From an uncultured Gammaproteobacteria bacterium (GTDB taxonomy: Bacteria > Patescibacteriota > Patescibacteriia > UBA9934 > GWF2-40-263): 64,000 nucleotides of DNA. The translations under genes and the position numbers were made by a program. Location: the NCBI GenBank assembly GCA_964402425.1, contig CAYOCD010000001.1:82934-146933 (forward strand). The letters are read 5' to 3'. The number at the start of each line of letters is the position of its first letter. Within the stretch, counting starts at the first letter, position 1. A model generated the notes under the pieces. The model made no database searches and was not told where the DNA came from. It saw only the letters and a list, made by a program, of their open reading frames with translations. Shown here one piece after another: positions 23,441 to 56,946 of the stretch.

Positions 23441-23930
23441 GGAAGGCGAGAGAGGTTTGAGAGACTGGAGATGCTTGAGAGGCCGAAGAGAAGGCCAAAA
23501 AAACAGTCAATTGTCTGGATAGACGATTGACTGTTTGTATTTTCTAAGAAGAAAGTCTGCTCTGGCTCTAATATCTTCCAAAAATTCGTAGGATATCTCA
23601 TCAAGAAAACCTAATGAATATGAGATCTCGAGAAAAAAAGCACATTCTTTCGAAGAACCCTCTGCAATATTTAAATATCGAATAAAGTCTTTTTGTGATT
23701 GTGTAGCTCGTCCTTCAACAATATTCGCAGGAATAGAGAGTGCTGCCCGACGCAACTGTGACGTAATTCCAAATATCTCCTGTTTAGGAAATGACTCTGT
23801 TTTTTTATAAACCTCAATGACAAACTTATTGGCTTCCTGCCAAGCTAATATTTTATGATACGGCTGTTGTTTCATATTTTCTTCGGCCTCTCAAACATCT
23901 CCAACCTCTCTCGCCTCTCCAGCCTTCCCC
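23441..23930. mobile_element. Putative full-length member of the GA-rich palindromic element family. Its inverted arms (23441-23506 and 23881-23930) flank a four-helix-bundle protein gene as cargo. No transposase.
   Basis: The reverse complement of the right arm, ggggaaggctggagaggcgagagaggttggagatgtttgagaggccgaag, nearly equals the left arm gggaaggcgagagaggtttgagagactggagatgcttgagaggccgaag. Confidence 0.35.
23507..23875 (-). CDS. Four-helix-bundle protein of the 23S rRNA intervening-sequence protein family (TIGR02436/PF05635-like).
   Basis: LAWQEANKFVIEVYKKTESFPKQEIFGITSQLRRAALSIPANIVEG...IRYLNIAEGSSKECAFFLEISYSLGFLD matches the characteristic pattern of this family. Recognised from memory, no search run. 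Confidence 0.6.
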   Translation of the reverse strand: MKQQPYHKILAWQEANKFVIEVYKKTESFPKQEIFGITSQLRRAALSIPANIVEGRATQSQKDFIRYLNIAEGSSKECAFFLEISYSLGFLDEISYEFLEDIRARADFLLRKYKQSIVYPDN

Positions 23931-30909: not shown

Positions 30910-30958
30910 CGGCCTTTTAAGCCTCTCCGGCCTCTCTCGCCTCTCAAGCCTTTCCCCA
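30910..30958. repeat. Solo arm (pyrimidine-rich strand CTCTCGCCTCTCAAGCC) of the GA-rich palindromic element family, in the smpB/infC divergent region.
   Basis: cggccttttaagcctctccggcctctctcgcctctcaagcctttcccc. Responsible for the spurious N-terminal extension of the infC ORF. Confidence 0.6.
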
Positions 30959-36411: not shown

Positions 36412-37665
36412 TTACTTCTTTTCTTGCTTGGCTTCTCCTAAAACGATCGTTGTATCAAACAACTTACCGTCTCTAATATATTGAACCTTGATTTTATCAC
36501 CTGATCTGTGAGGAGCAATGAGTTCCGCAAGTGCTTTTCCCTGTTCAAACTCCACCCCATCAACAGCAATGATAATGTCATGTTCTTTTAATCCCGCCTC
36601 TTCTGCAGGACTATTTTTGATCACGGCATCTTCTGATGCAGCATTCCCTTTTGCCAGTTTTGCGCCAAAAGTAAATGGAGGTTTGGCATTCTCACCCCTC
36701 ACAAACACATAGCGAACCCCGATCCATGGACGAGCAATATATCCGATTGTTTTAACATCTTCAATTGCACGTTTCACTTGATTGATAGGGATTGCAAATC
36801 CAACAGCTTGACCATCAACGCTCACAGCTGTGTTTATCCCAATCACCTCTCCTAGCAAGTTGATGAGTGGGCCACCTGAATTTCCAGGATTGATGGCCGC
36901 GTCTGTTTGAATCGCTTTTTCAATCACTTCTGAACCACCGATATTAAACCCAGCTGTTACACGGCGATTCATTCCAGAGACAACTCCTTTTGTCACAGTA
37001 TTGCGAAATTCTGAAAGGGTATTTCCAATCGCAATAACCGTTTGTCCAATGCGGATCTTATCCGAGTCTGCAAGTGTTACGATAGGAAATTTTGGAAGTT
37101 GATTTTCTTCTGACGAAGGTTCGACACGCAACAACGCGATATCAAGAAACATATCTGTGTCCACAAGTTTTGCAGGATATTCTTTTCCTTCATTTGTGAC
37201 AATGAAAAACTGTGTCCCTGGTGCGTCTACAACATGACGATTCGTTAAAATCAATCCATCCTGCGTCACAAAAAAACCGGTTCCACTTGAAACATCAACC
37301 ATTTTTAACCCCTCTTCATCTGAAAGCGTTTCATTAAAGAAAAACGCACGAGAGCCATACGGTTGTTGACGAAACGATTTAACAACATCCGCACGCGATT
37401 TTCTGACAATGACACTAACAACAGCTGGTGTTACTTCATCCACAACATGAATCGTTGCGCTTTCTTCTTCTATCAAATTAACAATAGTGCTTGCATTTTT
37501 TGGATCAATATTTGTTCCTACTTTATATTGTGCCACAACGCTTGGATAGACACTTGCGACAATCCACGCACCGAATCCTCCAAAAAAAAGACTTATTCCT
37601 ACACACAACAAAATAAGACGAGAAGTATTCATACAACATGTTTTACTTAGAAAGTTTTTTCCCAA
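36412..37665 (-). CDS. htrA: HtrA/DegP-family serine protease (trypsin fold plus PDZ), catalytic triad intact.
   Basis: GTGFFVTQDGLILTNRHVV (His), DIALLRV (Asp), GNSGGPLINLLGEVIGINTA (Ser), PDZ GSPAEEAGLKEHDIIIAVDG. An N-terminal TM anchor is present; exact start is ambiguous (M1 or M12). Confidence 0.8.
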   Translation of the reverse strand: MGKNFLSKTCCMNTSRLILLCVGISLFFGGFGAWIVASVYPSVVAQYKVGTNIDPKNASTIVNLIEEESATIHVVDEVTPAVVSVIVRKSRADVVKSFRQQPYGSRAFFFNETLSDEEGLKMVDVSSGTGFFVTQDGLILTNRHVVDAPGTQFFIVTNEGKEYPAKLVDTDMFLDIALLRVEPSSEENQLPKFPIVTLADSDKIRIGQTVIAIGNTLSEFRNTVTKGVVSGMNRRVTAGFNIGGSEVIEKAIQTDAAINPGNSGGPLINLLGEVIGINTAVSVDGQAVGFAIPINQVKRAIEDVKTIGYIARPWIGVRYVFVRGENAKPPFTFGAKLAKGNAASEDAVIKNSPAEEAGLKEHDIIIAVDGVEFEQGKALAELIAPHRSGDKIKVQYIRDGKLFDTTIVLGEAKQEKK

Positions 37666-38137
37666 CAGGGAGTATTTTTTGTGATTTTGTTCCGATCAAT
37701 TTATTTAATTCACGTTCAAATGTTTTTACATCTTCAAACGATCGATAAACAGATGCAAAACGGATGTATGCAACCTTATCAAAGGTCTTCAATTGATTCA
37801 TGACAATATCTCCTAGCTCGGCCGTTGTAATCTGTCCGTGAGTCTTTTTTTGAATATGACGTTCAATTCTATGAATCAAACTTTGAAAAGACTGATCTGT
37901 GTATGGACGCTTTTGGAGCGCTCGCTCAAGCCCGCGAACCATTTTTTCTCTTGAATAGGTTTCACGTCGCCCATCTCGTTTTACAACTGTTAAATCTAAA
38001 AGTTCCAGCTCTTCCAACGTAGAAAATCGAAAACTACATTTTTCGCACTCACGACGTCTGCGCACACTTGCACCATCAGAAGACATGCGCGAATCAACAA
38101 CTTTTGAGTCTTTGTGATTACAAACGGGACAATACAT
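37643..38137 (-). CDS. nrdR: Transcriptional repressor NrdR. Start MYCPVCNH at 38137; the listed ORF extends 44 codons upstream into repeat element B.
   Basis: Zn-ribbon CPVC...CEKC followed by an ATP-cone (VVKRDGRRETYSREKMVRGLERA). Confidence 0.8.
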   Translation of the reverse strand: MYCPVCNHKDSKVVDSRMSSDGASVRRRRECEKCSFRFSTLEELELLDLTVVKRDGRRETYSREKMVRGLERALQKRPYTDQSFQSLIHRIERHIQKKTHGQITTAELGDIVMNQLKTFDKVAYIRFASVYRSFEDVKTFERELNKLIGTKSQKILPVGKKLSK

Positions 38138-38138
38138 A

Positions 38139-38292
38139 AAGGAAGGGCGGAAAAGGATGAAAAGGCGGAAGGGGCGGAGAGGAACGTAAATGGCATGCAG
38201 GGATGATAACAAAAAAAAGCAAAAAGAAAAAACGGATAAACCGTTCTTCTTCTCATTCCTTTCCGCCACCTCCGTCTTTTCCGCCCTTTTTC
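38139..38292. repeat. GA-rich palindromic element B (GGCGGAA type): arms GGAAGGGCGGAAAAGGATGAAAAGGCGGAAGGGGCGGAGAGGAACG / TTCCTTTCCGCCACCTCCGTCTTTTCCGCCC. The loop contains the mini-hairpin AACGGATAAACCGTT. Abuts the ftsZ stop codon.
   Basis: Seen in sequence between ftsZ and nrdR. Confidence 0.7.
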
Positions 38293-39671
38293 TAAATCAT
38301 TTTCTTTCTAATAAATGCCGGGATCTCAATCTCGTCTTCTTGTGCTTGTTGTGGGGACGGTGAGATAGGAGCAGGTCTTGGCGCAACACGCATTGGGACC
38401 TCTTGCAGTTGTTGCGGCTGTTGTTGCGGTTGTTGTTGCGGTTGTTGTTGATGATGTTGCATCATTGGTTGAGGAATGGGCGCCGCAATAGGTTGTGGTG
38501 TCATCATGGTTGGTGCTGGTTGACTGTAAAACTCTCTACGCATTTCCATTTGTGGAGGCCTTACTTCCATTTGCGGTTTTGGAGGTTGAAAATTTACTTT
38601 TGGTCGTGGAGCTGGACGCTGCAAACTTTCTTCTTCTCGCACACGCAAAAAGGTGTTTGGCGCCCATGTGCCTTGTGCTTGAACTTCTACAACACCAGGT
38701 GACGTTGTGCGGCGTTCACGTGAATCAAAACCTGTTGCGACAACCGCAATACGAATCTCATCACCCAACGAGTCATCAATGTTCGCTCCGAAAATGACTT
38801 TTGCGTCTTCATCCGCAGAACTTGTAATAATCTTTGCAGCCTCTGCAACCTCATGCATTCCAAGATCACTTCCACCCGTAATGGTAAATAAGATTCCACG
38901 CGCCCCATCAATCGACAACTCAAGCAACGGACTTGCAATCGCTTGTTTTGCTGCCTCGACAGCTCTGTTCTCACCACTTGCACGACCGATTCCCATTAAG
39001 GCTGATCCGGAAGATTCCATGATCGCTTTTACATCGGCGTAGTCAACGTTAATCAAACCAGGAACGGTAATTAACTCGGCGATCCCTTGCACACCTTGGC
39101 GCAAGACATCATCCACAACCTTAAACGCATCCATGAGAGAAGTTTTTTTATCGATGATTTGAAGAACACGATCGTTTGGGATGGTGATGATGGCGTCCAC
39201 GTACTTCATGACTTTCTCAAAACCTTCATCTGCAATGCGACGGCGTTGTGCGCCTTCAAAGGTAAATGGTTTTGTGACAACAGCAACGGTGAGTGCTCCA
39301 ATATCCTTTGCGAGTTTGGCAACTTCTGGAATGGCACCCGTTCCAGTTCCACCTCCGAGTCCGCACGTAAGAAAGACCATGTCTGAACCCATGAGCGCTT
39401 CACGAATTTCATTTTGTGTTTCTTCTGCTGCGCGCGCACCAACCTCTGGATTCATTCCAGCACCGAGTCCGCGTGTAATGGTTTTTCCAATAGCGATCTT
39501 TGTTGCGGCAAGATTCTGATTCAACGCTTGAACATCTGTATTAATAACAATAAATTCAACACCTTTAATGTTGTCAGAGATCATGCGGTTAATAGCCGCA
39601 CTTCCACCACCACCAATTCCAACAACTTTAATTTTTGCGAACGTTTCAATATCTGGTTTTACTTGAGCCAT
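38292..39671 (-). CDS. ftsZ: Cell division GTPase FtsZ with a long Pro/Gln-rich C-terminal linker. Start MAQVKPDIE at about 39671; the listed ORF extends 59 codons upstream.
   Basis: GIGGGGSAAINRM...NTDVQAL...GLGAGMNPEVGARAAEE...FLTCGLGGGTGTGAIPEVAKLAKDIGALTVAVVTKPFTFEG. The tail carries (QQPQQ)n. Confidence 0.9.
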   Translation of the reverse strand: MAQVKPDIETFAKIKVVGIGGGGSAAINRMISDNIKGVEFIVINTDVQALNQNLAATKIAIGKTITRGLGAGMNPEVGARAAEETQNEIREALMGSDMVFLTCGLGGGTGTGAIPEVAKLAKDIGALTVAVVTKPFTFEGAQRRRIADEGFEKVMKYVDAIITIPNDRVLQIIDKKTSLMDAFKVVDDVLRQGVQGIAELITVPGLINVDYADVKAIMESSGSALMGIGRASGENRAVEAAKQAIASPLLELSIDGARGILFTITGGSDLGMHEVAEAAKIITSSADEDAKVIFGANIDDSLGDEIRIAVVATGFDSRERRTTSPGVVEVQAQGTWAPNTFLRVREEESLQRPAPRPKVNFQPPKPQMEVRPPQMEMRREFYSQPAPTMMTPQPIAAPIPQPMMQHHQQQPQQQPQQQPQQLQEVPMRVAPRPAPISPSPQQAQEDEIEIPAFIRKKMI

Positions 39672-39833
39672 ACAATTGGTATTCAATCGAATAAATTTTG
39701 TGCAAAGATGAACACTATTATTGTTCAACAAATCATCATTTGTACACAAAAATTGTAACAACACTGTAACATCGCCAAAGGGGAAGTCAAGAAAAAATGA
39801 GAACAACTGTGGATAGAACGATTGAGTGAACGA

Positions 39834-39862
39834 TTGACAAAATCGCAAAAATCGAGTACTCT
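39834..39862 (+). promoter_or_regulatory. Sigma-70-like promoter: TTGACA, 17-nt spacer, TACTCT. Lies upstream of 39931..40407.
   Basis: cgattgacaaaatcgcaaaaatcgagtactct. Strong SD AAGGAGG 5 nt before the ATG at 39931. Confidence 0.35.
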
Positions 39863-39930
39863 CTTCCGGTCAAGGTGACCCTTATGAACGACCGAGGAGT
39901 GGTCGAGTTCATCCAACCAAGGAGGAAACG

Positions 39931-40407
39931 ATGAGCGATTTGAACCCCCAAGAAATGAGCGTGGAACAGCTGCGCTCCAAAATCCTGGAGCGGACAGCCG
40001 CGAACAAAGATGATCAAGAAAAGCGCAAACAGCGCGGTCGCGAAATTCACGAATTATCCAAGGCTCTTGCTGCCAAGACAGCGATTGGCTACATTGTCAT
40101 CACAACATCATCGATGCCAGACGTTTTGTTGTCTGCCTCCCCAGAAACAACAACCTTTCATGAGTGGATCTCCTTCCGTGCATTGAGCGGAGACCCTCCC
40201 CTCATCGAAATGCAACTCATCACCAATCGCGATGAGAAAATCACCTTTCGCCTTGCACTAGGCGACACAATCCGTTTCCAACACGAATACAACAGTTCGA
40301 AAAACGGCGGAACACCATCTGTTCATGATTACACCGTCAAAACGTTCAAGACAGAAAACGAACTTCTTGGATGGGCCTACAGGAAACATGTTTGTCTACC
40401 AACCTGA
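39931..40407 (+). CDS. Hypothetical cytoplasmic protein (158 aa), encoded between ftsA and ftsZ on the opposite strand.
   Basis: Strong RBS. Followed by two hairpins with T-runs (40410-40440 and 40450-40480). No recognisable motifs. Confidence 0.5.
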   Translation: MSDLNPQEMSVEQLRSKILERTAANKDDQEKRKQRGREIHELSKALAAKTAIGYIVITTSSMPDVLLSASPETTTFHEWISFRALSGDPPLIEMQLITNRDEKITFRLALGDTIRFQHEYNSSKNGGTPSVHDYTVKTFKTENELLGWAYRKHVCLPT

Positions 40408-40480
40408 CACCCCTTTTGGGCGGGTGTCTTTTTCTTTTATCAGAAAACACGTGACCGATCGGTCGCGTGTTTTTATTTTT

Positions 40481-40528
40481 ATTCCTTTCAGACCTTTCCG
40501 CTCCTTCCGCCTTCTCCGCCCTTCCCCT
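40481..40528. repeat. Solo arm C of the GGCGGAA-type GA-rich element (CCTTTCCGCTCCTTCCGCCTTCTCCGCCCTTCCCC) abutting the ftsA stop codon.
   Basis: Seen in sequence. Confidence 0.6.
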
Positions 40529-41786
40529 ACGGTTTCAACTGTTTCAGCATTTTCATGAATCCACTTCCGACTTTTTCTAATCCGCCGATCTTTGACATGA
40601 TTTGTCCAAGACCTTTTGTGTTTGTAACACCCCTCATGTGTTTCCCCCAAAGAACAAGTCCGATAGCTGTTGTCATGCCGGGGTCATTGATGCGATCAAT
40701 CACAGACGAAACACCAATTGGCGTTCCAAGTGAGATAGGCAAACGGAGAGTCGCCTTCCCTGCCTCTAACATACCAACAAGTTTTGCGCCACCACCCGTA
40801 AGAATAATACCGGCTGGCAACATTCCTGAGCGATCAATTTTTTGAAGTTCGCGATCAACAAGTTCGAAGATCTCTGATACGCGCGCTTCCGTAATATCGG
40901 CGACAAATCTTCGGCCTACCCATTCTTCTTCTGGACTTCCGAGTTCTGCAAGGTTGATATCATCTTTTTTTCCGACTTCTTCTGGAAGACAGGTGGCATA
41001 ACGAAGTTTCATTTGTTCCGCAACATCAATAGAAGTTCTAAGTCCAATCGCAATGTCTGACGTAATATGATCAGACCCGATTGGCAACACGGCTGTATGG
41101 AGAATATCTCCTTCTTCAAACACCACGAGACTGGTTGTTGATGCTCCAATATTCACAACACAAACCCCAAGTTCTTTTTGACGATCTGTAATAACAGCTT
41201 CTGCTGTTGCAAGAATGGAGAATACCAAATCTTCAATATCAAGACCGGTTCTGTAAACCGCCTTTGTCATGTTTTTAATTTGCGAGCCAAGTCCTTGAAT
41301 AATGAGAGCGTCCACCTCAAGACGAATACCGTTCATTCCGACAGGATCCTTAATTCCCCGCTGGCCATCTACAATGAAGCTTTTTGGAATGACGTGAATG
41401 ATTTCATAATTGGTTGGCGTAGCGACCGTTCTTGCGGCTTCAATGGAGCGCTCGACGTCTTCTTCCCGAATCTCACCATCAGACCTTCCGACACCAATAA
41501 CCCCTCTGGATTCCTGCGAGATGATGTGACTTCCACTAATCCCCACCCAAGCTTTGTTCAAAGGCAATCCTGTAATGCGTTCCGCTTGTTCAAGTGCACG
41601 CGAAACAGAAGACACCGCATCTTCCAAATTGGTGATGGTGCCTTTGTTGATACCAGCAGATGGGACTTCCACTGCCCCAACGATATGAATTTGTTCTTTT
41701 CCGTCCGCGGATGGAACAATTTTTCCAACAGCAACACGCACGGCACAAGAACCAATATCGAGACCAGTGAATACTTCTTCAGACAT
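40527..41786 (-). CDS. ftsA: Cell division protein FtsA (actin-like ATPase).
   Basis: FTGLDIGSCAVRVAVGKI...HIVGAVEVPSAGINKGTITNLEDAVSSVSRALEQAE... . The C-terminal amphipathic tail is ...GLEKVGSGFMKMLKQLKP. Confidence 0.85.
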   Translation of the reverse strand: MSEEVFTGLDIGSCAVRVAVGKIVPSADGKEQIHIVGAVEVPSAGINKGTITNLEDAVSSVSRALEQAERITGLPLNKAWVGISGSHIISQESRGVIGVGRSDGEIREEDVERSIEAARTVATPTNYEIIHVIPKSFIVDGQRGIKDPVGMNGIRLEVDALIIQGLGSQIKNMTKAVYRTGLDIEDLVFSILATAEAVITDRQKELGVCVVNIGASTTSLVVFEEGDILHTAVLPIGSDHITSDIAIGLRTSIDVAEQMKLRYATCLPEEVGKKDDINLAELGSPEEEWVGRRFVADITEARVSEIFELVDRELQKIDRSGMLPAGIILTGGGAKLVGMLEAGKATLRLPISLGTPIGVSSVIDRINDPGMTTAIGLVLWGKHMRGVTNTKGLGQIMSKIGGLEKVGSGFMKMLKQLKP

Positions 41787-45162: not shown

Positions 45163-48100
45163 TTAATTTACGGGACAATAGGTGAATTCAATATTACTCA
45201 GAGTGACAGATGCACTTGTTGGATTCAATTTAACATTAATTGGAAGAGAAAATGGAGCATCCTGACAGATAAACTTGCTTGGAAGTGGCAACTTCAATCC
45301 GTTTCCGATCTCAAGCAAAGAAGTTCCTGTTTGTGGAAGTGTATATTTTCCATTTGCATCTTTAAATGTTGCTGCAATTAACGACACGGTATTTCCAGCA
45401 TTCAAAAGTGAACTTGATGAAGAAACATTTGCCGTAATTCCGACCCCAACTCGGCATGCTGGAAGCAACAAACTTGCACGATCTGGTGTTTTTCCTTCTG
45501 TATTTTCCAAACTAAATAAGGTGATACTGCTTGATGGTTGAGATTCGGCTACATTTCCTTGCACTTGAAGAGCAACTTTTTGGAATGCGGTCGGACAAGA
45601 ACTATTACAACTCGATGAACAAGTTGGCAGTACACATGTTCCTACACCTATACATTTTTCATTATTAGCCGTATTGCAATCACCGTTCCAGTTACAAGTA
45701 CTACCGGATGTTTCACAATATCCATCACAATTATTTTGATAAGCTGCGCATTTTTTTCCATTCTCCCCACGAAGAGAGCCTCCATTACAAGTACCCACAA
45801 TGCGACATGAATACCCCTTATCACAGGAAGTTCCGTGCCACGTTGATGTTGAACCATCATCTTTCTTCCCGTTAGCTGTGCCATCTGAGGTTAGTCCGAC
45901 ATCTTTTGAATCACACGGACCCTTTAGATCCATTTCATCCGCACTGATTGATTTTGTACATGTTCCATTTAACTTCGTACCATCACAATATTCGCCACCA
46001 TTGATTGCTCCATCTCCACAATACGGACCAGATTGTGTTTTGTACTGACAGTATTGATTACAGAAGTTACAGCTTGATCCGTACGCCGCATTACAAGCGA
46101 TTCCGTTTGCCTTACCGCTGTCACACGACTCGATTCCAACGTTTACAAAGTTATCGCCACACACGTTTGTCTTACAGGCGTTTGTACAACTGTCATTGCT
46201 GGAACTGTTTCCGTCATCGCATTCTTCTGTTCCTTCTTTCTTTCCATTACCACATTGTTGTGGACCACCAGCACACGCACCCCATCCACCACCGGCAAGA
46301 TTTGTGATCCACTGACAGCTGTTTGAAGATGGATTGTTGTAATTCTGACAGGTGCGTGTTCTGGTGAGGTCATATTGTTCTGCTGAACATTTTCCACCTG
46401 CCCCACAAGAAGCATCATCTGTACAAATCGCACCAATTGTTGTTCCGGCGGTACAAATCTTTGCTTTTGCACAAGCCGCAACAGGACATCCAGATGAAGC
46501 CGTACATTTTGTTCCATCGTTATTCAATGCACCAGCATACGTTTCTGTATTTCCATCGCATTTTTCTGATGAATCATTAATCAAATTGTCCCCGCACATT
46601 GGTCCTGGAGCTTTACACTCTGCAGTACAATTTTTTCCATCTTTGTCGTAATTTCCGTTATAGGTTGCACAATGATTACCGGACTTTGCCCAACTTGTTC
46701 CCGCAAGTGTCGACCAATTTGATGGCGTTCCGCAATCACATTGTTCATTCCCCGCGAGGTACCCGTCACCACACGCAAAATTAGAAACAACTTTACAATC
46801 TTTACCACAGTGGCCGTACGTACCATTCAGCGCAGTACCATCATCACAGACTTCACCAAGCGCTTTATCAATCACACCATCTCCACAAGAAAATGGCTTA
46901 CATGTTCCACCGGCTTTTTTTGCAGCATCCTCAGCGGCTGCATCTGTTGCATAATTTTTACAATCATTTTTACAAGTAACATTGATGAACCCTGCGTTGT
47001 TTGCGCAAGCAATCGATTTGACTTCACCAATTTCACAATCTTCACCCACACCCTTTACTCCATCACCACAAATCGTAGAGCTTCCAAAAACAGTTGCGTT
47101 GCAATAAGCGGAAGTTGAGACAAATCCTGGCAGGAGATTTGCAGGAGCTTTCCCGTTTAGATAAGCCGCTTTAATGGTCGCTTGATCACCAGATGCGTCT
47201 ATTTTATTGTTCCACGCAACCGTACTGTATTCCAATTCTGTTGTGAGGACATATGCTTCCCCACCAAAATTTTGATATCCGTACACATGAGAACCGTTTG
47301 GACAAAGAGATTTTCCTTGTGCGCTATTCCAACACGTTGCGGAATCATATCCTTCACCTACATTTTTACACTGTCCCCAGAATTGGTTGAGCGGATCTGT
47401 TGGCAGAGCACCCCCAACCTCATTTCCAAGCGTACTGTTCCAAGATGGCCAGATACTGTTACTTACAGAAGGAACAAACGTTCCTGCTTGAATAGTTGGA
47501 TAGCTCGGGATACATGTTTCTGTTCCTGGACAAGCAGAATTCGCTCCTGTACCCGCTTTACTGTTTTGAGAAACAACACAGGCTTGACTCTTGGTTACCG
47601 CACAACGACCGTTTGTGTTTCCGTATTTTTCAAATGTGGTCACCATCTCTGTGACATCTGTCAATCGTTTTGTGTCTCTGATCAATTTTTGTTTGTCTGC
47701 ATCACAGAACATGTTTGGATCAGCTACTGCACATTCCGCATTTCCTAATTTTGGATTACAAACTTTATCCGAAACGGAACATTTTCCATCTGGCTTACAT
47801 TGATCCAAACAGTCTCCATCCCATGAACATGTGGTAAACGGACCACTTGGTGGAACATAGGCACTTCCACTCTTACAAAGACCAACGTGCGACACTCCAG
47901 TTACACCAGTATCATTCGCGTTTAATCGGAAATTTTGTAAGACAAGATCAAAAATCTGTTGCGCATCTTTTCCGGCATCTGCGTTAAATGAGATAACGTA
48001 AATATTTGAATAGAGATTTGATCCGTTGCGATTTGCCGCTGCTGCATAAATCGTTGTTCCTGTTTGCACAGCTTCATATCCATCCAACTTGGCCGCCTTT

Positions 48101-51100
48101 GGTATTCCAGTAAATCCCTGTGATTTAAACCAAGCCATTGGTGACAGATAATTTGGATTTGAGAGAACACGCACTCCAATAGAGTCTTTTGTTCCAGAAA
48201 CGCGGAACACTAATTCTTTCAAGACATCTGTTGTAATGAGTTGATTTACATCTGGTGTTGCATCTGTTGGAGGAAGTTCAAGAGCAGGCAGCTTCTTTCC
48301 TTCTTCTGGTTTTCCAACATCTCGACAATAGAATAAGGAGAAGTTTGTGTTCGCTCCATTTTCAACAAATGGAACCCCGTGTGCCAAATCCGGCCATGGA
48401 TTTTCACACAAGAACGCAACCTCTGACACATGACCAGATACAGCCGAACCAACCGTTGATTTTGCACTTATTGTATCTGCAGAGATTGTTGCGGTTGCAA
48501 TAACATTTCCTGAACCGTTCTTTCCAAGGGCTTTATATTGCGCTGTTTGTGCGATGCTTGGTCCAACAATTCCTAAAATATCCATTTTAGTTGCCGTATC
48601 TTTCACGTTTGCAGCCCAGACCCACGTCCAAGCGTATACACCTGAAATTGAAGAGATTTCTTCAAGTGTTCCTGTGTTTTTGCGATAAGAAAACGGCTTT
48701 GTTGTAAATGCGTGGACTTCATTTGTCTTAGAATAATATCCGGGGCTCTTTGAGAGATACGAAGGTGGAGTTGGGGTGATTCCACCATCTGTTGTTTCCA
48801 CAACGTCAAGCAAACAAACATCCGCACCGGTTGTGAAAGTACTTGAGAGAGAAACAACGGAGCAAGTTGTGCCATTGTCACCAAGACAAACACTGACCTT
48901 GTTTTTACTAAGAACTCCCTTTGACGTTTCTCCGTTTTTTGTTTTTACCGTCAATTTATATTGCGCATTTGGAAGTAATTGTTCTGTGTAACGAAGATAA
49001 ACTTGATGTGTACCTGGGTCTTGTTCAAACGAAACAGGAACAAAACATTGCGTGGTTGCATTTGCCATGGCAGATTGCCCAAAAGCATCTTTAACCCAAT
49101 TCCAAACAAAAGAGAAAATATTTTTTGCACGCATGAATCCAACAGGCTTTGGATAATACGGACAGTTAACTGCTGTTACAGCCTCATTGATACCTAAACT
49201 ATTTTTCTTCGTAATCAGCTCAAGCTGAAGATTTGGATCTGTTTCTGCCGCACTTAATTTTCCATCTCCGTCAGTATCTACGGAACCAAACGTACTCGCA
49301 TCCATTTCTTGATCAAACGCAATGGAAATAGCCGTATTGCGACAAATGTTTGTTGCATTATTTCCAGGAACCATCGCTGTAATCGTTGGGCGCTCAAAAC
49401 AACACTTTTCCACACCGCAACCAAGCGATTTTGAAGATTCCCCTGTTTTTGTTCCACACTGATTATCGGAAGCACAGGAACAAAGCAATTTCACTTCGCC
49501 TGTACCTGTCTTTCCTCCAACGGAGACCTGTACATTTGAAACAGCATATCCGTATGTTGCTTTTTTCTCATCTTTTTCTACCTCAAGCGACGCTCCACTT
49601 GAAACTTCTGCAACACCATAAGCACCAACGGTATATGTTGCGGAAGCAGCTGCTTCACACTGCTCGCCCGGTTCAAGAGCTCCCCCATTTCCACAAACAG
49701 AAGGGATAGCATAATTTGGATTTGAACCCATCTTTAAACAACTCTTTGAACATCCAGGAGCGATAGATCCAACACCAAGATCACATCCTGCATCTTCCCC
49801 GGAATCTGTAACACCGTTTCCACAGACAAATTTTGCTGGATCTTTTCCAGGACTTGTTCCGCGATTCAAACAAAGATCTGTACAAGCCACTGTGGTACGA
49901 ACCTCACATTTTGAACCATCCTGACACGCTGCACCACCAATGGTACAGACAGCCCCATCCGCACAATGCGTTCCTGGATCACATGTCTCTCCAACACTAG
50001 CAATTCCATCTCCACAACGTGCATTTGAATACGCAACAACACCTCCTTCAAACAAACAATTTGAGGAACATCCATCTCCTTCTTTTATGTTTCCGTCATC
50101 ACAGGCTTCCCCACCATTTGTCTTTGAGTTATCAGCAACTCCGTCTCCACAAATAGATTTAATAGAGGAAACCCCTTCAAACAAACACTTTGCAGAACAT
50201 CCATCTCCACCCAAAACTTTTCCATCATCACATTGTTCACCCGCATCCACAACGTTATTTCCACACGTTGGAGCAACCGTTCCTTCTTTCAAACAACTTG
50301 ATGAACAGCCGTCTTTGTCATTTGTGTTTCCATCATCACAAGACTCCCCGTAATTTACTGCCCCATTTCCACAAACAGCTTGTCCGACTTTGATTGGGTT
50401 TCCTGTATACAAACAGTTTCCTCCACACATTTTTGGGAGTGTGTTTGTAAGAGCAAGCGAACCATTATTCAACAAAAACGCAGTGATCTCATTGTATTTA
50501 TGATCTGCTCCTATTACATACGATGCTGCACCGATCTTGTTTGGTGTATCTGTTGCACCCCATCCACCCCATCCACTTGCTTGCAAGGCTTGCCCTGTTA
50601 CAGAACATTCGTCCGGAGCTCCATATGCAATCGCGTTGTATTCTTGACGTTGACCAACATATTTAAGTATTGCCGACTTTGGAGAAAGCCCAACACGATC
50701 AACGGCACATGAGGTGAGCGAATCTTTTGACTTAAATTTCCAAGAAAACGCACCTGGATAAAATTTATTTTCAGGAGTTCCGTAATTAGATCCAGATTCT
50801 GAAAGAGATGAGGACACACTCGATTTAATCCAATCTGCGACAACAACTCGATACCACGTATTTGACACAAACGCAGCGCCATCTGTCACAATTGATGCTC
50901 GATATGTTGCAGAATCATATATGACACTCGTAACATGATTCCATGCGGTCAACTGACTCTTTTCACAAAGGGCATTTTCACATTGAAAAATACGAATTGC
51001 ACCCGCAATATTAAAGACAGCTGGATTCATTGGAACATTAAATGAAACCCACGGCTTCACGTTTGCACATGCGGCAGAACAGTTTGGAAAATAATCACTT

Positions 51101-54100
51101 ACTTTTGGTGTTGCAAGCGCGATGGTCAGAAGTCCTTTATTCGTTGGTTTATTTCCAACATCCGTAACCGTTGCACTAATTTCTGCAGGGATTCCAATAG
51201 GGGTGTTATAAAGAGGATTGACATTTACGGTACAAACACCGGCTGCAGGATTACTTGTTAATGTGTCACCCGGTAGGAATTTTGCTGCCTGTTGTGAAGA
51301 ACTCCAACTTACCGAATGTCCAGCACACGCAAGCACAACACACTTGTCTTTGTTTGAAAGTAATTGTGCAAGATATCCAACAGCATCTCCGGCATTTTTT
51401 GCCGTGAACGTTGCTGGAGAAACACTCACTCCACCAACACCACATGGCGCATTTGAGGAGGATGTTCTGAATTCCCAAGAATAATCTTTTGCCATGGAAG
51501 CACCCGAAACAAGTCCATTCACCTTAGATTTTACCCCACCCCCAGGAGCAGATGCCCCTTTGATGGTAACGCGATGCAAAGTACTTGTATCAAAATGATT
51601 ATTTGGAGACCATTGAAATGTATATTCACCTGGTGTCTGAAAAGAACCTGGCACCACTTGCCAATCTGCTGCTACACATGTTCCATTTACCTCTTTGGCT
51701 ATTGGACATTTTTCTATAACGATATTTGTGTTTCCGATACCGATCGTTGCAGGATCCATTGGAACCGCAAACGAAGCTGTCACTGCAGCTGAAACACAGA
51801 TATCATTTTGCGTACTCCAAAGTGGTGATGGGGATGGTGATGGCTTTGGAAATTTTGGATCCGCACAATTCACAACAACCGTTGGCGCAACAGGAATTGG
51901 GCTCGTTGAAACCTTGTAAACAAATTGAGAAAATTTCGGCCCATCGCTTGGACAGGCTTGGCCTACAAGTGAACACGAGCCATCTCCACAGCATGCCTGA
52001 CCAGCCGTACAGAGACTTGGAGTTTGCAGACAATTTCCAACCGCAAAATTTACCGAGTTTGATTGTTTCAGCGCAGCATCTACCACATAAACAGGACCTG
52101 ACTTTGTTCCAACAGGAACGCTCGCTGATCCGATTTCAGTTCCTGTCCAGGAACCAGGATCTTCGGAAAGATTTGTTGTAAACACAACCGCTCCTTTTTG
52201 ATCTCCAAAATTTTCTCCAAAAATATCAATCGATGTTCCGGCAGGACCCGCGTTTTTGCTTAAAAGACAAATTCCTGGTGTTGGTTTTCCATCCACAACG
52301 GTAAATGGTTTTGCATCAGAAGCATTTCCGGTCTGAGGCACAACACTCACTTCATAATTACCAGGTTTGATAGGACTCTTATCTAGATTAAATGGAACTT
52401 TTACCGTAACCGAATTAGTGTGCCAAAAAAGATCTCCACAAGCTTTTGGGAACTCTACATTTCCGTTTATAACCTCATTTGAAGTAAGATTTTTAAATTT
52501 AACGTATCCTGTAGATGACCCAAAATTGGATCCATAAATGGTTACATATTGTCCAGAAGGACCCCATGCTGACTGCGATTTACAAGAACCAGCTACGCCA
52601 CCACAATCCTTATCCGTAGAACAATATTGATTTGCTATCGCTCCTCCATTACAGACTTTCCAACCTGTATCAATTGTAGCGATCGTTGCTTTTTCTACAT
52701 TTGGTGTGTTTGTTGCAACAAATTTCTTTGTATTAGAACCAACGCGAACATCCATACATGTTCCACCCGCAGCTCCACAAGCCGTATTATCCTGACAATA
52801 TTGAAGCGTCTCAGAACACCAGGACATTCCACACTTATATGCTGCATCTACTTTTGTACAATCCGCATTTGAAAAACAAGAAAGCGCTGGACTCACTTTT
52901 GCCCCACTCGCATTCAAACAGAAATAATCACCTGTAAAAACTTGGGCATTATACGTTCCGCTTGCAACTCCTGGTACATTTCCTTTCAATTCCGTCGCTC
53001 CCCACAAAGAAGGCGTCAACTGAAAATTTGAAAGATAAACAGAAGACGAACCTTGTCCAGCACCAAACGCAAGACCAGTCAGAGTAATTAACGTATTCAC
53101 TTCCGCAGCTGGTGTAATCGAACACAAACCAGGGCGCTTAATTGCGTTTACATCAAATTTAGATATGACGGGTCCAACAGCATCATCAGTTCTTTCTGAC
53201 TGTGCTGCTGCCCCCAGAGCACCTGCTGGAATATTGATTTTTAACGGACCATCAATAGCACCAGCCGGTACTTTCACAACAATTTCCTTTTCTTTCCAAG
53301 AAGAAGTTCCGCCACACTGGAATGCGTTTGCCACTTTTGTCGTTCCATCTTTTTCTGCTCCAAGAAATTCAACCGTACCGGGCGTTGTCCCAAATCCAGA
53401 ACCTGTAATCGTGATTAAGTTTTCTACAGCACCATTGTCTGGAGAGATAGATTGAATAACAGGGACATCCTGACATCTTCCTGCAATACAAAACCCAGAA
53501 GAACATTGTGCATTACTCGTACACGCAGACGGCTTACAGAGCCCGCAAAAATATTCGCTTGTTGCGTCTCCACCACAATCACACGCATCACCAACTGCAC
53601 ATGTTCCCGTTTCTCCATACGGAGCACTTGCATCTTGCGTGCCATTGTCACAGTTTGGCGCACGAAGCATGACAGAAACTTTTCTGGAAATTTGTGTAGA
53701 TCCCGCACAATCAGTAGCCATTGCCCAAACGGCATATGACTTATTTGCAACAAATCCAACCGGAGTCCATTCTCCATTAAAAAATGCTGTTGTGAGTCCA
53801 TTTAATGCCGTAGGATTCACCGCAATAGAAGATGTATCAACAGAAGTTTCTCCGTCTGCAGCAAAAAATTCAACACTGGCCACTCCTGTATCATCAACCG
53901 TTCTTACTTGAAGTGGTTTGCTTAATCCCAAAATAGCTTTTGCTCCAGCTTGTGGTTCTACAAACGAAACTTCTTGAGGTGGTTTTGTGTCCACAACAGA
54001 GCCTGTTGTGAAATCAAACGAACAAGGATTCACTCCCCCCTCCGTCTTACAAGTAAGCGTTGCACCGCTTGCTGATTTAACTTGTGCAGGATCTACCTCA

Positions 54101-54816
54101 ACATGAAATGCGGCGTTTGGTGCAAAACAAGACAAAGATTCATTTGGAGTCGGACATTTTTCTTCTGGCGTGAACATGACTTTTCTGCCAGAAAACGTAA
54201 AAGACCCGGGAACATCCACCCCGTCTCTTGTGATCTTTATTCCCTTTTCATCTTTCACGGATTTTGAAAAAACAAGGGATAATTTAAGGTTACGAACACC
54301 CGCAGCACATTGGATAATGGACGTTGGCGGATTTAATGAGAATACAGGAGTTGGTGACGGAAACGGTGAAGTTTTTAAACAAGATAGATCTGTAGGATTT
54401 TTTTTACAAAACGCAATAATATCTGCATTCGATGTTGCTCCCACCAACTTTGAAATGACGAATTGTGCAATCGCAAACGATGACAAAACAATCACAAGAC
54501 CGATTAAACCGTTTTTAATGGAGTTCTTTGCTTTTTTGAGACGATCTTCGTTTCCACCCGCCGTCATGTACATGAATCCTCCGTACAGAACAATCATGAC
54601 CGCAATAATTCCAAGAAACGAAATGACTGTGCGAATCAAACGCGCAATAATGACGGTAATGGAAGGCCCTGTTGAAAACCCCGCGTTGGCCGCAAAAGAA
54701 GCAAACGCATCTGGATCTACAGGACTTGCAGCGAGGATTGGTTGAGCAAAAAAGATTCCCGTGCAAAGGAGAACGGTTAGAATAAACATCGATTGAAGCA
54801 ATCTGCGGAGGTTCAT
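45163..54816 (-). CDS. Giant (3217 aa) cysteine-rich cell-surface protein. N-terminal signal peptide plus two-helix membrane hairpin domain, SbsA-type Ig-like / beta-rich regions, and at least 10 Myxococcus-type cysteine-rich repeats (CGNGxxxxGExCDDGNxxxGDGCSxxC).
   Basis: Single uninterrupted ORF. N-terminus MNLRRLLQSMFILTVLLCTGIFFAQPILAAS...IIARLIRTVISFLGIIAVMIVLYGGFMYMTAGGNEDRLKKAKNSIKNGLIGLVIVLSSFAIAQFVI. Repeats such as CGNGAVNYGESCDDGNTNDKDGCSSSCLKEG, CGNNVVDAGEQCDDGKVLGGDGCSAKCLFEG and CGDGAINGGEYCDG. Confidence 0.7.
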   Translation of the reverse strand: MNLRRLLQSMFILTVLLCTGIFFAQPILAASPVDPDAFASFAANAGFSTGPSITVIIARLIRTVISFLGIIAVMIVLYGGFMYMTAGGNEDRLKKAKNSIKNGLIGLVIVLSSFAIAQFVISKLVGATSNADIIAFCKKNPTDLSCLKTSPFPSPTPVFSLNPPTSIIQCAAGVRNLKLSLVFSKSVKDEKGIKITRDGVDVPGSFTFSGRKVMFTPEEKCPTPNESLSCFAPNAAFHVEVDPAQVKSASGATLTCKTEGGVNPCSFDFTTGSVVDTKPPQEVSFVEPQAGAKAILGLSKPLQVRTVDDTGVASVEFFAADGETSVDTSSIAVNPTALNGLTTAFFNGEWTPVGFVANKSYAVWAMATDCAGSTQISRKVSVMLRAPNCDNGTQDASAPYGETGTCAVGDACDCGGDATSEYFCGLCKPSACTSNAQCSSGFCIAGRCQDVPVIQSISPDNGAVENLITITGSGFGTTPGTVEFLGAEKDGTTKVANAFQCGGTSSWKEKEIVVKVPAGAIDGPLKINIPAGALGAAAQSERTDDAVGPVISKFDVNAIKRPGLCSITPAAEVNTLITLTGLAFGAGQGSSSVYLSNFQLTPSLWGATELKGNVPGVASGTYNAQVFTGDYFCLNASGAKVSPALSCFSNADCTKVDAAYKCGMSWCSETLQYCQDNTACGAAGGTCMDVRVGSNTKKFVATNTPNVEKATIATIDTGWKVCNGGAIANQYCSTDKDCGGVAGSCKSQSAWGPSGQYVTIYGSNFGSSTGYVKFKNLTSNEVINGNVEFPKACGDLFWHTNSVTVKVPFNLDKSPIKPGNYEVSVVPQTGNASDAKPFTVVDGKPTPGICLLSKNAGPAGTSIDIFGENFGDQKGAVVFTTNLSEDPGSWTGTEIGSASVPVGTKSGPVYVVDAALKQSNSVNFAVGNCLQTPSLCTAGQACCGDGSCSLVGQACPSDGPKFSQFVYKVSTSPIPVAPTVVVNCADPKFPKPSPSPSPLWSTQNDICVSAAVTASFAVPMDPATIGIGNTNIVIEKCPIAKEVNGTCVAADWQVVPGSFQTPGEYTFQWSPNNHFDTSTLHRVTIKGASAPGGGVKSKVNGLVSGASMAKDYSWEFRTSSSNAPCGVGGVSVSPATFTAKNAGDAVGYLAQLLSNKDKCVVLACAGHSVSWSSSQQAAKFLPGDTLTSNPAAGVCTVNVNPLYNTPIGIPAEISATVTDVGNKPTNKGLLTIALATPKVSDYFPNCSAACANVKPWVSFNVPMNPAVFNIAGAIRIFQCENALCEKSQLTAWNHVTSVIYDSATYRASIVTDGAAFVSNTWYRVVVADWIKSSVSSSLSESGSNYGTPENKFYPGAFSWKFKSKDSLTSCAVDRVGLSPKSAILKYVGQRQEYNAIAYGAPDECSVTGQALQASGWGGWGATDTPNKIGAASYVIGADHKYNEITAFLLNNGSLALTNTLPKMCGGNCLYTGNPIKVGQAVCGNGAVNYGESCDDGNTNDKDGCSSSCLKEGTVAPTCGNNVVDAGEQCDDGKVLGGDGCSAKCLFEGVSSIKSICGDGVADNSKTNGGEACDDGNIKEGDGCSSNCLFEGGVVAYSNARCGDGIASVGETCDPGTHCADGAVCTIGGAACQDGSKCEVRTTVACTDLCLNRGTSPGKDPAKFVCGNGVTDSGEDAGCDLGVGSIAPGCSKSCLKMGSNPNYAIPSVCGNGGALEPGEQCEAAASATYTVGAYGVAEVSSGASLEVEKDEKKATYGYAVSNVQVSVGGKTGTGEVKLLCSCASDNQCGTKTGESSKSLGCGVEKCCFERPTITAMVPGNNATNICRNTAISIAFDQEMDASTFGSVDTDGDGKLSAAETDPNLQLELITKKNSLGINEAVTAVNCPYYPKPVGFMRAKNIFSFVWNWVKDAFGQSAMANATTQCFVPVSFEQDPGTHQVYLRYTEQLLPNAQYKLTVKTKNGETSKGVLSKNKVSVCLGDNGTTCSVVSLSSTFTTGADVCLLDVVETTDGGITPTPPSYLSKSPGYYSKTNEVHAFTTKPFSYRKNTGTLEEISSISGVYAWTWVWAANVKDTATKMDILGIVGPSIAQTAQYKALGKNGSGNVIATATISADTISAKSTVGSAVSGHVSEVAFLCENPWPDLAHGVPFVENGANTNFSLFYCRDVGKPEEGKKLPALELPPTDATPDVNQLITTDVLKELVFRVSGTKDSIGVRVLSNPNYLSPMAWFKSQGFTGIPKAAKLDGYEAVQTGTTIYAAAANRNGSNLYSNIYVISFNADAGKDAQQIFDLVLQNFRLNANDTGVTGVSHVGLCKSGSAYVPPSGPFTTCSWDGDCLDQCKPDGKCSVSDKVCNPKLGNAECAVADPNMFCDADKQKLIRDTKRLTDVTEMVTTFEKYGNTNGRCAVTKSQACVVSQNSKAGTGANSACPGTETCIPSYPTIQAGTFVPSVSNSIWPSWNSTLGNEVGGALPTDPLNQFWGQCKNVGEGYDSATCWNSAQGKSLCPNGSHVYGYQNFGGEAYVLTTELEYSTVAWNNKIDASGDQATIKAAYLNGKAPANLLPGFVSTSAYCNATVFGSSTICGDGVKGVGEDCEIGEVKSIACANNAGFINVTCKNDCKNYATDAAAEDAAKKAGGTCKPFSCGDGVIDKALGEVCDDGTALNGTYGHCGKDCKVVSNFACGDGYLAGNEQCDCGTPSNWSTLAGTSWAKSGNHCATYNGNYDKDGKNCTAECKAPGPMCGDNLINDSSEKCDGNTETYAGALNNDGTKCTASSGCPVAACAKAKICTAGTTIGAICTDDASCGAGGKCSAEQYDLTRTRTCQNYNNPSSNSCQWITNLAGGGWGACAGGPQQCGNGKKEGTEECDDGNSSSNDSCTNACKTNVCGDNFVNVGIESCDSGKANGIACNAAYGSSCNFCNQYCQYKTQSGPYCGDGAINGGEYCDGTKLNGTCTKSISADEMDLKGPCDSKDVGLTSDGTANGKKDDGSTSTWHGTSCDKGYSCRIVGTCNGGSLRGENGKKCAAYQNNCDGYCETSGSTCNWNGDCNTANNEKCIGVGTCVLPTCSSSCNSSCPTAFQKVALQVQGNVAESQPSSSITLFSLENTEGKTPDRASLLLPACRVGVGITANVSSSSSLLNAGNTVSLIAATFKDANGKYTLPQTGTSLLEIGNGLKLPLPSKFICQDAPFSLPINVKLNPTSASVTLSNIEFTYCPVN

Positions 54817-54826
54817 GTAAAAAAGA

Positions 54827-56809: not shown

Positions 56810-56946
56810 GAGTAAGGCTATAAAGGCAATAGAGGCTTGAGATGCCGAAGGGAACAAAAAAAAGAACGCGGTCAACGCGTTCTTTATTTTCTTGTTTCTT
56901 TTTTTCGGCATCTCAAGCCTCTCCAGCATCTCTCGCCTCTCTAGCT
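56810..56946. repeat. GA-rich palindromic element H: 16-bp perfect inverted repeat GAGGCTTGAGATGCCG/CGGCATCTCAAGCCTC plus CTCTCGCCTCTC arm. Loop carries the hairpin GAACGCGGTCAACGCGTTC. Abuts the stop of the yqeY-fusion gene.
   Basis: Seen in sequence between 56737 and 56941. Confidence 0.7.

Follow-up and report, generated by a model that had tools for sequence, protein, structure and literature searches.

Adjacency of ftsA and ftsZ is among the most conserved of bacterial gene orders. In the 64,000-nucleotide (nt) stretch of DNA analyzed here (the window; positions 82,934 to 146,933 of contig CAYOCD010000001.1, assembly GCA_964402425.1), the two genes are held apart by an open reading frame (ORF) of 158 amino acids (aa) on the opposite strand, and arms of palindromic repeats abut their stop codons. 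What is this gene, and how did it come to lie there? A preliminary description of the sequence had suggested that it may have arrived with the repeats. The best explanation, and one that we consider probable, is a different one: the ftsA-ftsZ spacer is a hotspot for variable genes that holds here one clade-specific, self-contained cassette, and the repeats are independent of it.

FtsZ of the window is 95% identical to that of the metagenome-assembled genome RIFOXYB2_FULL_45_11 of Candidatus Uhrbacteria (Patescibacteria, or candidate phyla radiation). For comparison, 80 related loci were fetched and numbered L001 upward. Pfam recognized both FtsZ and FtsA, with E-values from 7e-46 to 4e-28, every one above the gathering score, and the ORFs were found where they had been placed, so that the interposition of an opposite-strand gene between ftsA and ftsZ is confirmed. 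The synteny ybeY-dgkA-ftsA-ftsZ-nrdR is kept in most of the 80 loci, and ybeY-dgkA-ftsA-ftsZ-nrdR-htrA is evidently the ancestral gene order. The gap between ftsA and ftsZ is 855 nt in the window versus mostly about 120 to 300 nt in the related Uhrbacteria loci in which both genes were found. The flanking proteins hardly vary among the closest loci. FtsA is 97% identical in the window and L001, and the 320-aa FtsZ core is 100% identical in the window, L001, L002, L003, and L089; for FtsZ, the identity of L002 with the window is given as 91%. L085 is a strain 99% identical to the window. The variable part of FtsZ among these otherwise identical relatives is the C-terminal linker. A 12-nt tandem repeat in ftsZ (GTTGTTGCGGTT, 3.6 copies, at 38403 to 38459) encodes a tract of QQQP repeats within this linker.

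Is the 158-aa ORF a gene at all? Scans of the ORF and its relatives with Pfam, NCBIfam, PHROG, and PADLOC gave nothing meaningful, and a PDB sequence profile search gave no match. A word-indexed search of 5.8 billion proteins returned a single match (99% identical) for the window ORF and four for its homologue in L002. The absence of a database family and the single match in this first protein search are what would be expected if the ORF were a chance open frame in a noncoding insert. Comparison of loci gave the opposite picture. In L002, an opposite-strand ORF lies in an enlarged ftsA-ftsZ spacer; its protein is 26% identical to that of the window (E = 9e-9), and its promoter, 5' untranslated region (5'UTR), and terminators align with those of the window. 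Homologues of 149 to 181 aa occur in at least eight loci. All of them start with Met-Ser and all have a Shine-Dalgarno (SD) sequence, which is strong except in the second L083 copy. The proteins are 25 to 63% identical to one another. Their Nei-Gojobori ratio of nonsynonymous to synonymous substitution rates (dN/dS) is 0.33 to 0.45 for pairs unsaturated at synonymous sites, versus 0.01 to 0.02 for the ftsZ core. AlphaFold2 gave a confident model from six sequences, with a predicted local distance difference test score (pLDDT) of 85 and a predicted template modeling score (pTM) of 0.74. A family profile search of 1.8 billion representatives gave eight matches, six of them true members; P0007 and P0010, large HYR/PKD and RTX repeat proteins, were rejected as spurious multi-stretch profile matches. 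This search recovered solely proteins from the same locus, and we count the chance-frame explanation as already refuted. To judge from sequence conservation, the ORF is a real gene.

The homology search proposed in the preliminary description thus returned a family that is tiny and undescribed. Every member with readable context lies on the opposite strand in the ftsA-ftsZ spacer or directly 5' of ftsZ; the family loci next to ftsZ are L002, L081 to L089, L090, and L108. Two tandem paralogues are present in L082, L083/L084, and L086.

The gene appears to be part of an autonomous unit, which would consist of its own promoter, a structured 5'UTR, a strong SD sequence, the 158-aa ORF, and its own terminator (Table 1). 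The unit would sit with the ftsA terminator hairpin on one side and the ancestral ftsZ promoter on the other. It would be transcribed divergently from ftsZ, the two promoters standing back to back with about 44 bp between their -35 hexamers, across a motif resembling a DnaA box, and its transcript would be stopped by its own hairpin and by a second hairpin shared with ftsA. The promoter, the strong SD sequence, and the two hairpin terminators of the preliminary description were all borne out at the level of sequence. The promoter pattern TTGACA-N17-TAYTCT is kept in seven of the eight cassette units whose upstream region was read; the exception is the first L082 unit (a 151-aa ORF), which has a different upstream region. 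The cassette 5'UTRs align with 79% mean column identity and are predicted to fold into three stem-loops. Stem-loop SL1, GUCAnnnUGAC, is invariant among them. One base pair of SL2 covaries, being CG in four sequences and GC in another four. In the predicted SL3, GUUCAUC pairs with GAUGAGC, so that the start codon is paired and the SD sequence lies in the loop. This pairing of the start codon may explain the Met-Ser start of all members.

The terminator of the cassette likewise recurs across units, as GACAC(C/T)CC...GGGYGGGTGTC-TTTTTCTTTT starting at the stop codon. There is one such motif per cassette copy, and it was found in cassette-bearing loci only, barring a lone match in L014. The second hairpin would be positioned to end both the ftsA and the cassette transcripts, and a similar hairpin stands at its position in L002, L081, L082, and L089. 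The motifs of this regulatory shell co-occur in cassette-bearing loci only, and the 64-kb window has one such set. When metagenomes were scanned for the 5'UTR motif, 46 stretches came back. In two of these the family ORF or the remaining parts of the shell are present, and both are exact matches to the L002 cassette region, adjoining ftsZ; the other 44 look like chance matches. The regulatory shell is conserved around a coding sequence that diverges very fast.

We then consider what the interposed gene does to ftsZ. From the interposition, the preliminary description had inferred that ftsZ is transcribed from its own promoter within 39672 to 39930. A promoter does lie there, at 39790 to 39763, but it does not follow from the insertion, for about 26 of 30 loci have it. 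In the ftsZ promoter alignment (30 informative Uhrbacteria loci; two further rows lie outside the promoter), the putative promoter and its leader of about 85 nt are conserved in about 26, whether the cassette is present or not. The insert-free close relatives L001, L003, and L005 share both, together with a terminator hairpin after ftsA, and in many aligned loci that hairpin lies immediately 5' of the ftsZ -35 hexamer. Because the insert-free relatives keep the ftsZ promoter, the leader, and the ftsA terminator, ftsA and ftsZ would have separate signals lineage-wide. A dedicated ftsZ promoter is, as far as these alignments indicate, the ancestral state and not a product of the interposed gene. 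With separate terminator and promoter signals throughout Uhrbacteria, the insertion would therefore leave ftsZ expression unrewired, and the cassette would neither interrupt nor create ftsZ transcription.

Two further signals accompany the ftsZ promoter. In the leader, the palindrome TTGAACA-N7-TGTTCA(A) is kept in sequence in nearly all aligned Uhrbacteria; it could act as an operator or fold into an RNA stem. In the closest relatives of the window, this palindrome is flanked by another conserved pair, TTTTTGTGC ... GCACAAAA. Upstream of the ftsZ -35 hexamer, the DnaA-box-like motif is conserved in position in relatives, cassette-bearing or not. In Uhrbacteria the motif reads TTATCCMCA or TTATACACA and lies about 20 to 30 nt 5' of the ftsZ -35 hexamer, at equivalent positions in L001 to L028; in many species the loop of the hairpin that would terminate ftsA consists of this motif. 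Such boxes are not enriched across the window (3 matches versus 0.8 expected).

In the canonical division and cell wall (dcw) cluster of Escherichia coli and Bacillus subtilis, the order is ftsQ-ftsA-ftsZ, and the ftsZ promoters lie inside or upstream of ftsA. The Uhrbacteria locus resembles that cluster in having ftsA 5' of ftsZ on the same strand and in having a dedicated ftsZ promoter. It differs from it in the intrinsic terminator after ftsA and the single strong promoter with a long conserved leader before ftsZ, and, in the subclade of the window, in the opposite-strand gene between the two. Our literature searches found no report of an opposite-strand gene between ftsA and ftsZ.

How the cassette is distributed bears directly on its history. 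On the ftsZ-core nucleotide tree it is patchy: it is present in the window, L002, L089, L086, and L081 and absent from the respective sisters L001, L003, and L005. The preliminary description had named an ancestral arrangement, with the same gene present throughout the lineage and without repeats, as the outcome that would overturn its proposal. One part of this holds, since all members of known context lie in the ftsA-ftsZ spacer or just 5' of ftsZ, in several lineages, with repeats or without; the gene is not universal, however, being absent from L001, L003, and L005. The contents of the spacer alternate. It is empty in L001, L003, and L005, carries one cassette in the window, L081, and L089, and carries two in L082, L083, and L086. 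A MazE/PIN toxin-antitoxin pair stands with the cassette in L002 and alone in L006, and unrelated ORFs occupy the spacer of L034, L054, L058, and L078. Because the sisters lack the cassette and other lineages have MazE/PIN or unrelated ORFs at the same place, we regard the ftsA-ftsZ spacer as a hotspot.

Some of these occupants deserve a description of their own. The MazE(AbrB)-antitoxin/PIN-toxin pair lies at L002:4493-5130 and L006:1200-1837, codirectional with ftsA, and the L002 pair is beside the cassette and shares the bidirectional hairpin with it. A motif, GTCATCCTGAGCGGAGCGAAGGATC, or its reverse complement occurs in the ftsA-cassette spacer, next to the ftsA stop codon, of L086 (3270 to 3300) and of L082 (2490 to 2530), and it may be another dispersed repeat.

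The sequences of the cassettes give hints of lateral exchange. The nearest homologue of the window protein is that of L086, at 42% identity; in the same two genomes FtsA is 94% and the FtsZ core 97% identical. The L002 copy groups with those of L081, L082, and L083 in a paralogue class other than that of the window. The content of G+C at third codon positions (GC3) of the cassette is 0.53, versus 0.28 to 0.39 for native genes, and an excess is also found in L002 and L082. In the same class I genome pairs, the synonymous divergence (dS) of the cassette is 0.68 to 0.94 versus 1.27 to 1.54 for ftsZ, or about half, both being values near saturation. We suggest that the pattern would reflect differential loss from a tandem array of long standing, exchange by recombination in flanks that hardly vary, or a combination of the two. 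In this scheme, long residence at the site, together with loss of paralogues and/or homologous recombination via the flanking ftsA and ftsZ, would produce the patchiness.

Several observations weigh against this reading of a hotspot with a self-contained cassette. The weak cassette -10 hexamer, TACTCT, was not listed by the consensus promoter scanner, because it agrees with the consensus at only three of six positions, and the promoters, transcription starts, and terminators alike were read from sequence and its conservation. GC3 is not in excess in L086 or L081. Repeated loss after vertical inheritance is inseparable here from lateral exchange, since dS is near saturation and the protein tree is confounded by paralogy. 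Finally, most cassette-bearing contigs are short metagenome fragments of 2 to 8 kb, and this genome was seen over 64 kb; because the contigs are short, other genomic copies of the cassette could have escaped.

Did the repeats carry the gene? The repeats in question consist of tandem 9-nt units. As the preliminary description had said, arms stand at the stop codons of both ftsA and ftsZ: arm B ends 3 nt from the ftsZ stop codon, and arm C ends one base before the ftsA stop codon, i.e., starts directly after it in the sense of ftsA. Arms A and B together occupy the spacer between ftsZ and nrdR and are 74% complementary over 42 nt. A 161-nt segment spanning them folds with -62.6 kcal/mol (z -7.2). 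A strand bias in the folding of this hairpin, sought as a sign of a role at the RNA level, was not found (-62.6 versus -61.8 kcal/mol). Neither the hairpin nor the cassette 5'UTR matched Rfam at the gathering score; the hairpin drew sub-threshold matches to plant microRNA precursors, at 26 to 27 bits versus gathering scores of 85 to 135.

A mobile element bounded by these arms, with A/B at its ftsZ end and C at its ftsA end, could have carried the gene into place, and parts of the locus look as this would predict. The segment of ftsZ plus the ORF is bracketed by related arms (arm C is 79% complementary to arm A and 78% identical to arm B), the closest relative, L001, has neither the gene nor arm C, and the GC3 of the ORF is atypical. 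We nevertheless hold this origin to be very improbable. The only inverted pair, A and C, encloses the essential and vertically inherited ftsZ as well as the ORF. Arms A and B make up a complete element of the ftsZ-nrdR spacer, and a like element is present in L001, L004, and L086, of which L001 has no cassette. Conversely, the cassette of L081 has no 9-nt array on either side, and that of L089 has none on the ftsZ side, its ftsA side being cut by the contig end; the claim that the gene arrived with the repeats finds no support in these two loci. The spacer of L002 and that of L086 have a single arm each, which is pyrimidine-rich and precedes the ftsZ promoter, on the side opposite to that of the window. 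At the position of arm C itself, an arm is present in L085 and absent in L001, L002, L003, and L086. Neither within the 855-nt spacer nor adjacent to it is there a transposase ORF, and no target-site duplication appeared at the spacer edges when L001 was compared. The arms also belong to a family that is dispersed over many unrelated intergenic regions, with at least eight sites in the 64 kb. Insertion of the ORF by a transposon, an insertion sequence, or a miniature inverted-repeat transposable element (MITE) was rejected on similar grounds: bounding repeats, duplication, and transposase were not found, and the shell motifs occur only next to ftsZ.

Table 1. Positions of the features at the ftsA-ftsZ locus and of the elements built of 9-nt units; coordinates refer to the window unless a locus is named.
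Feature	Coordinates	Strand	Remarks
nrdR	37643-38137	-	Pfam Zn_ribbon_NrdR and ATP-cone; no SD; pyrimidine arm directly 5' of ATG
Full palindromic element	38143-38288		occupies whole ftsZ-nrdR spacer
Pyrimidine arm A	38184-38143	-	ends 5 nt before nrdR ATG
Candidate extended -10, TGTTATCAT	38211-38203	-	in ftsZ-nrdR element; conserved form TGYTATGAT
Putative ftsZ terminator hairpin	38249-38227	-	in ftsZ-nrdR element
Purine arm B	38288-38247	-	ends 3 nt from ftsZ stop codon
ftsZ	38292-39671	-	Pfam Tubulin 7e-46, FtsZ_C 3e-35
ftsZ stop codon	38292-38294	-	
Putative ftsZ leader	39672-39756	-	conserved in relatives
ftsZ-leader palindrome, TTGAACA-N7-TGTTCA(A)	39709-39728	-	kept in nearly all aligned Uhrbacteria
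Putative ftsZ promoter	39790-39763	-	TTGACT, 16-nt spacer, TG-extended TACAGT; promoter scanner
DnaA-box-like motif, CTATCCACAG	39807-39816	-	consensus TTATNCACA; between the two back-to-back promoters
Putative cassette promoter	39834-39862	+	TTGACA (39834-39839), 17-nt spacer, TACTCT (39857-39862); read in sequence
Putative cassette 5'UTR	39869-39930	+	about 62 nt; three predicted stem-loops, SL1 to SL3
SD sequence, GGAGG	39921-39925	+	5 nt before ORF ATG
158-aa ORF	39931-40407	+	small fast-evolving family; SD, ATG start, TGA stop
Putative cassette terminator (hairpin 1 and T-run)	40406-40438	+	GACACCCC..GGGCGGGTGTC then TTTTTCTTTT; stem starts within TGA stop; hairpin 1 (40406-40428) -12.9 kcal/mol, z -3.4
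Hairpin 2, bidirectional	40443-40474	both	14-bp stem; -21.1 kcal/mol, z -6.8 (+); -16.0 kcal/mol (-)
Arm C	40484-40526	-	half element, about 4.8 nine-nt units; purine-rich on ftsA sense strand (GGGAAGGGCGGAGAAGGCGGAAGGAGCGGAAAGGTCTGAAAGG)
ftsA stop codon	40527-40529	-	
ftsA	40527-41786	-	Pfam FtsA 3e-33, SHS2_FTSA 4e-28
9-nt elements in the window (at least 8)	18287-18414, 19815-19920, 21181-21262, 23889-23925, 30919-30956, 38143-38288, 40484-40526, 56814-56951		
9-nt elements in relatives	L001:7348-7531, L001 about 4395-4510, L004:1263-1406, L086:333-480, L081:560-690, L055:7188-7243, L020:755-815		

If they did not bring the gene, what are the 9-nt arms? On the sequence evidence, they are an independent family of dispersed intergenic repeats outside the cassette. 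In the window, 15-mers made of two 9-nt units gave 15 matches versus 0.35 in shuffles, an enrichment of about 40-fold, and only lag 9 stands out for periodic arrays biased to purines or pyrimidines (9 arrays versus 0 to 3 at lags 6 to 12). A full element consists of a purine arm, a loop, and a pyrimidine arm, on either strand. Each arm is made of four to five 9-nt units of the type GGCGGAARR or GGCKNGAGA; a terminator often lies in the loop, where a -10 box is sometimes present as well. In L001, L004, L086, and L081, the ftsZ-nrdR site shows the same architecture with different 9-nt units. A plain spacer of 60 to 75 nt with a simple terminator takes its place in L002, L003, L005, L006, and L089, and in L002, L003, and L089 this plain spacer contains a TATACT box.

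The elements are oriented with respect to genes. Purine arms abut stop codons: in the window those of ftsA, of ftsZ, of a gene that ends at 23930, and of yqeY (at 56941); in L001, L004, L086, and L055 that of ftsZ. Pyrimidine arms abut start codons, namely those of nrdR and of infC (at 30962) in the window, nrdR and ftsA in L001, nrdR in L004 and L086, and one gene in L020. The start codons of nrdR, infC, and L001 ftsA at such arms have no SD sequence. The long stem could bring the stop and start codons together and could couple or gate neighbors such as ftsZ and nrdR. If the elements are functional modules of this kind, the unit sequence could turn over while the architecture of the 9-nt element stays.

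These elements resemble the Correia elements (CREE/NEMIS) and the repetitive extragenic palindromic (REP) sequences and bacterial interspersed mosaic elements (BIME), which are among the MITE-like intergenic palindromes of bacteria. Like them, the 9-nt elements are dispersed, imperfect intergenic palindromes of 80 to 150 nt, present in multiple copies and polymorphic at orthologous sites of close relatives. They also carry or adjoin terminators and outward promoters, and they would fold into long hairpins, possible substrates of RNase III. They differ from those families in their tandem 9-nt units with a strict purine/pyrimidine strand asymmetry, in a unit sequence that varies between genomes at one site, in the replacement of the whole spacer by the element, and in the placing of the purine arm at stop codons and the pyrimidine arm at start codons. 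No REP-associated tyrosine transposase (RAYT) or other transposase gene was identified for the arms, although no genome search was aimed at either. Nor was a target duplication identified; at ftsZ-nrdR it is unreadable because the spacers of filled and of empty sites have no sequence in common. Our searches of the literature turned up no account of 9-nt repeats of this kind.

Arrays of tandem interspaced guide RNA (TIGR) were considered for the repeats and rejected. Such arrays have units of about 36 nt with two alternating 8- to 12-nt repeats and two variable 9-nt spacers, and lie by a Tas gene with a Nop domain (PMC12045711). The arms studied here have a period of 9 nt, near-identical units, no variable spacers, and inverted arms, and they occur as scattered single elements; there was no Tas-like gene among the proteins scanned.

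Elsewhere in the window, three of the palindromic elements lie between successive genes of a high-GC island at 13987 to 23000 (GC 0.52 to 0.63 versus about 0.42 elsewhere). This island contains tandem minus-strand genes, four of which encode cysteine-rich repeat proteins of the MopE type (Pfam Cu-binding_MopE). A TTGACA -35 box stands beside an arm of the elements at 18287 to 18414 and 21181 to 21262, pointing to the downstream gene. A gene of the "23S rRNA intervening sequence protein" family (PF05635) lies at 23507 to 23875 on the minus strand, and the purine 9-nt array before it starts at the upstream stop codon and reaches to within 8 nt of its ATG. Farther away, a 3217-aa ORF (45163 to 54816, minus strand) is found directly upstream of a gene for a 636-aa protein (54827 to 56737, minus strand) with an N terminus like the type IV secretion system (T4SS) pilin/TrbC and with Big_5 domains; 45163 to 56737 may be a surface or pilus locus.

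What the cassette protein does can be addressed through its model and its context. The predicted fold consists of a helical hairpin (residues 11 to 49), an eight-strand beta-sandwich, and a C-terminal helix. Foldseek with this model against the PDB and viral models gave nothing at E <= 0.001. We tentatively predict a soluble, cytoplasmic protein with the helical hairpin and beta-sandwich; our best guess, made with low confidence, is an accessory protein with expression linked to the region of the ftsZ promoter. Such a protein might serve as a modulator of division or take part in conflict with phages or hosts.

A forkhead-associated (FHA) domain, such as those of the EssC N terminus, the PrgH/YscD cytoplasmic domains, and Rv1747 FHA-1, was rejected as the identity of the sandwich: there was no match to Pfam FHA (PF00498) and nothing significant by Foldseek. 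Unlike an FHA domain, the cassette sandwich is predicted to have 8 strands, not 11, and the invariant residues of the family lack the G-R / S-x-x-H / N-G signature of phosphothreonine binding.

Could the cassette be a lineage-specific regulator of division, binding FtsZ or FtsA and coregulated from the shared divergent promoter region? Such a role would lock the cassette to the ftsA-ftsZ locus, and in agreement with it all members whose context is known occupy the ftsA-ftsZ spacer or the place just 5' of ftsZ, the two promoters stand back to back across the conserved DnaA-box-like motif, and a soluble, folded protein is predicted. Other observations speak against it. The FtsZ core is 97 to 100% identical among genomes whose cassette proteins are 25 to 63% identical, a mismatch unexpected for a dedicated partner, and close sister genomes manage without the cassette. 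There is no Pfam or NCBIfam similarity to SepF, ZapA, MinC, or other known FtsZ partners, and the protein is not a member of the known FtsZ-binding regulators (SepF, ZapA-D, MinC, SulA, EzrA, and MciZ). We regard a dedicated regulator of division as quite unlikely.

The fast evolution of the coding sequence, with the dN/dS given above, would fit a different kind of gene, one engaged in conflict (defense, anti-defense, immunity, or addiction) and sitting in an accessory-gene hotspot that linkage to essential genes keeps stable. Tandem paralogues, patchy presence and absence, and an atypical base composition are consistent with this, as are the MazE/PIN toxin-antitoxin pair in the same spacer of L002 and L006 and the unrelated ORFs in the spacer of other lineages. 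Against it, PADLOC and PHROG gave no match, and no phage match was found by sequence (tblastn against phage genomes), by fold, or by the 5'UTR motif in viral contigs. The overall dN/dS is below 1, and the sequences are too few for site-wise tests. The cassette is also a single gene with no recognizable effector domain. A conflict-type accessory gene is therefore an unlikely identity, on present evidence, for the cassette. A toxin-antitoxin module proper was rejected for the cassette of the window, where one gene stands alone and matches nothing in Pfam, NCBIfam, or PADLOC; the genuine MazE/PIN pairs are those of L002 and L006 only.

The two subjects of this study might also be read jointly, with the cassette as a locus-locked and rapidly diversifying partner of FtsZ or FtsA and the 9-nt elements as functional intergenic modules. 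The cassette could then be coregulated with ftsZ from the divergent region that holds the DnaA-box-like site. We consider this joint reading decidedly unlikely.

A hotspot holding a self-contained cassette, the explanation that we prefer, has a known parallel. The minimal mobile elements (MMEs) of Neisseria, which Saunders and Snyder are said to have described in 2002 as different genes per strain between two conserved genes, have their contents exchanged by homologous recombination in the flanks. As in MMEs, the ftsA-ftsZ site is fixed between two highly conserved genes, and its contents alternate among none, one cassette, two cassettes, MazE/PIN, and other ORFs, as in a hotspot. The insert likewise has no mobility gene, and its composition and dS hint at lateral exchange. 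Unlike in MMEs, one family recurs at the site, with a conserved shell of promoter, 5'UTR, and terminator and with tandem paralogues; the site is flanked by the division genes ftsA and ftsZ, and exchange between genomes is here a possible reading of the sequences. The family is new and narrowly distributed, whereas its setting, a hotspot between conserved genes, is already known.

These results would mean that in one lineage of the candidate phyla radiation ftsA and ftsZ are already two separate transcription units, and that the spacer between them therefore tolerates the landing and retention of accessory genes. They also caution that nearby palindromes are not to be taken as the boundaries of a cassette. 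The 9-nt elements that run from stop to start codons are a lead on how intergenic signals are organized in reduced genomes. The cassette itself represents an undescribed family of small proteins with an unusual signature, namely a fixed locus and a conserved regulatory shell around a hypervariable coding sequence, and it offers a concrete candidate for a division- or conflict-linked function in organisms that are not culturable alone.

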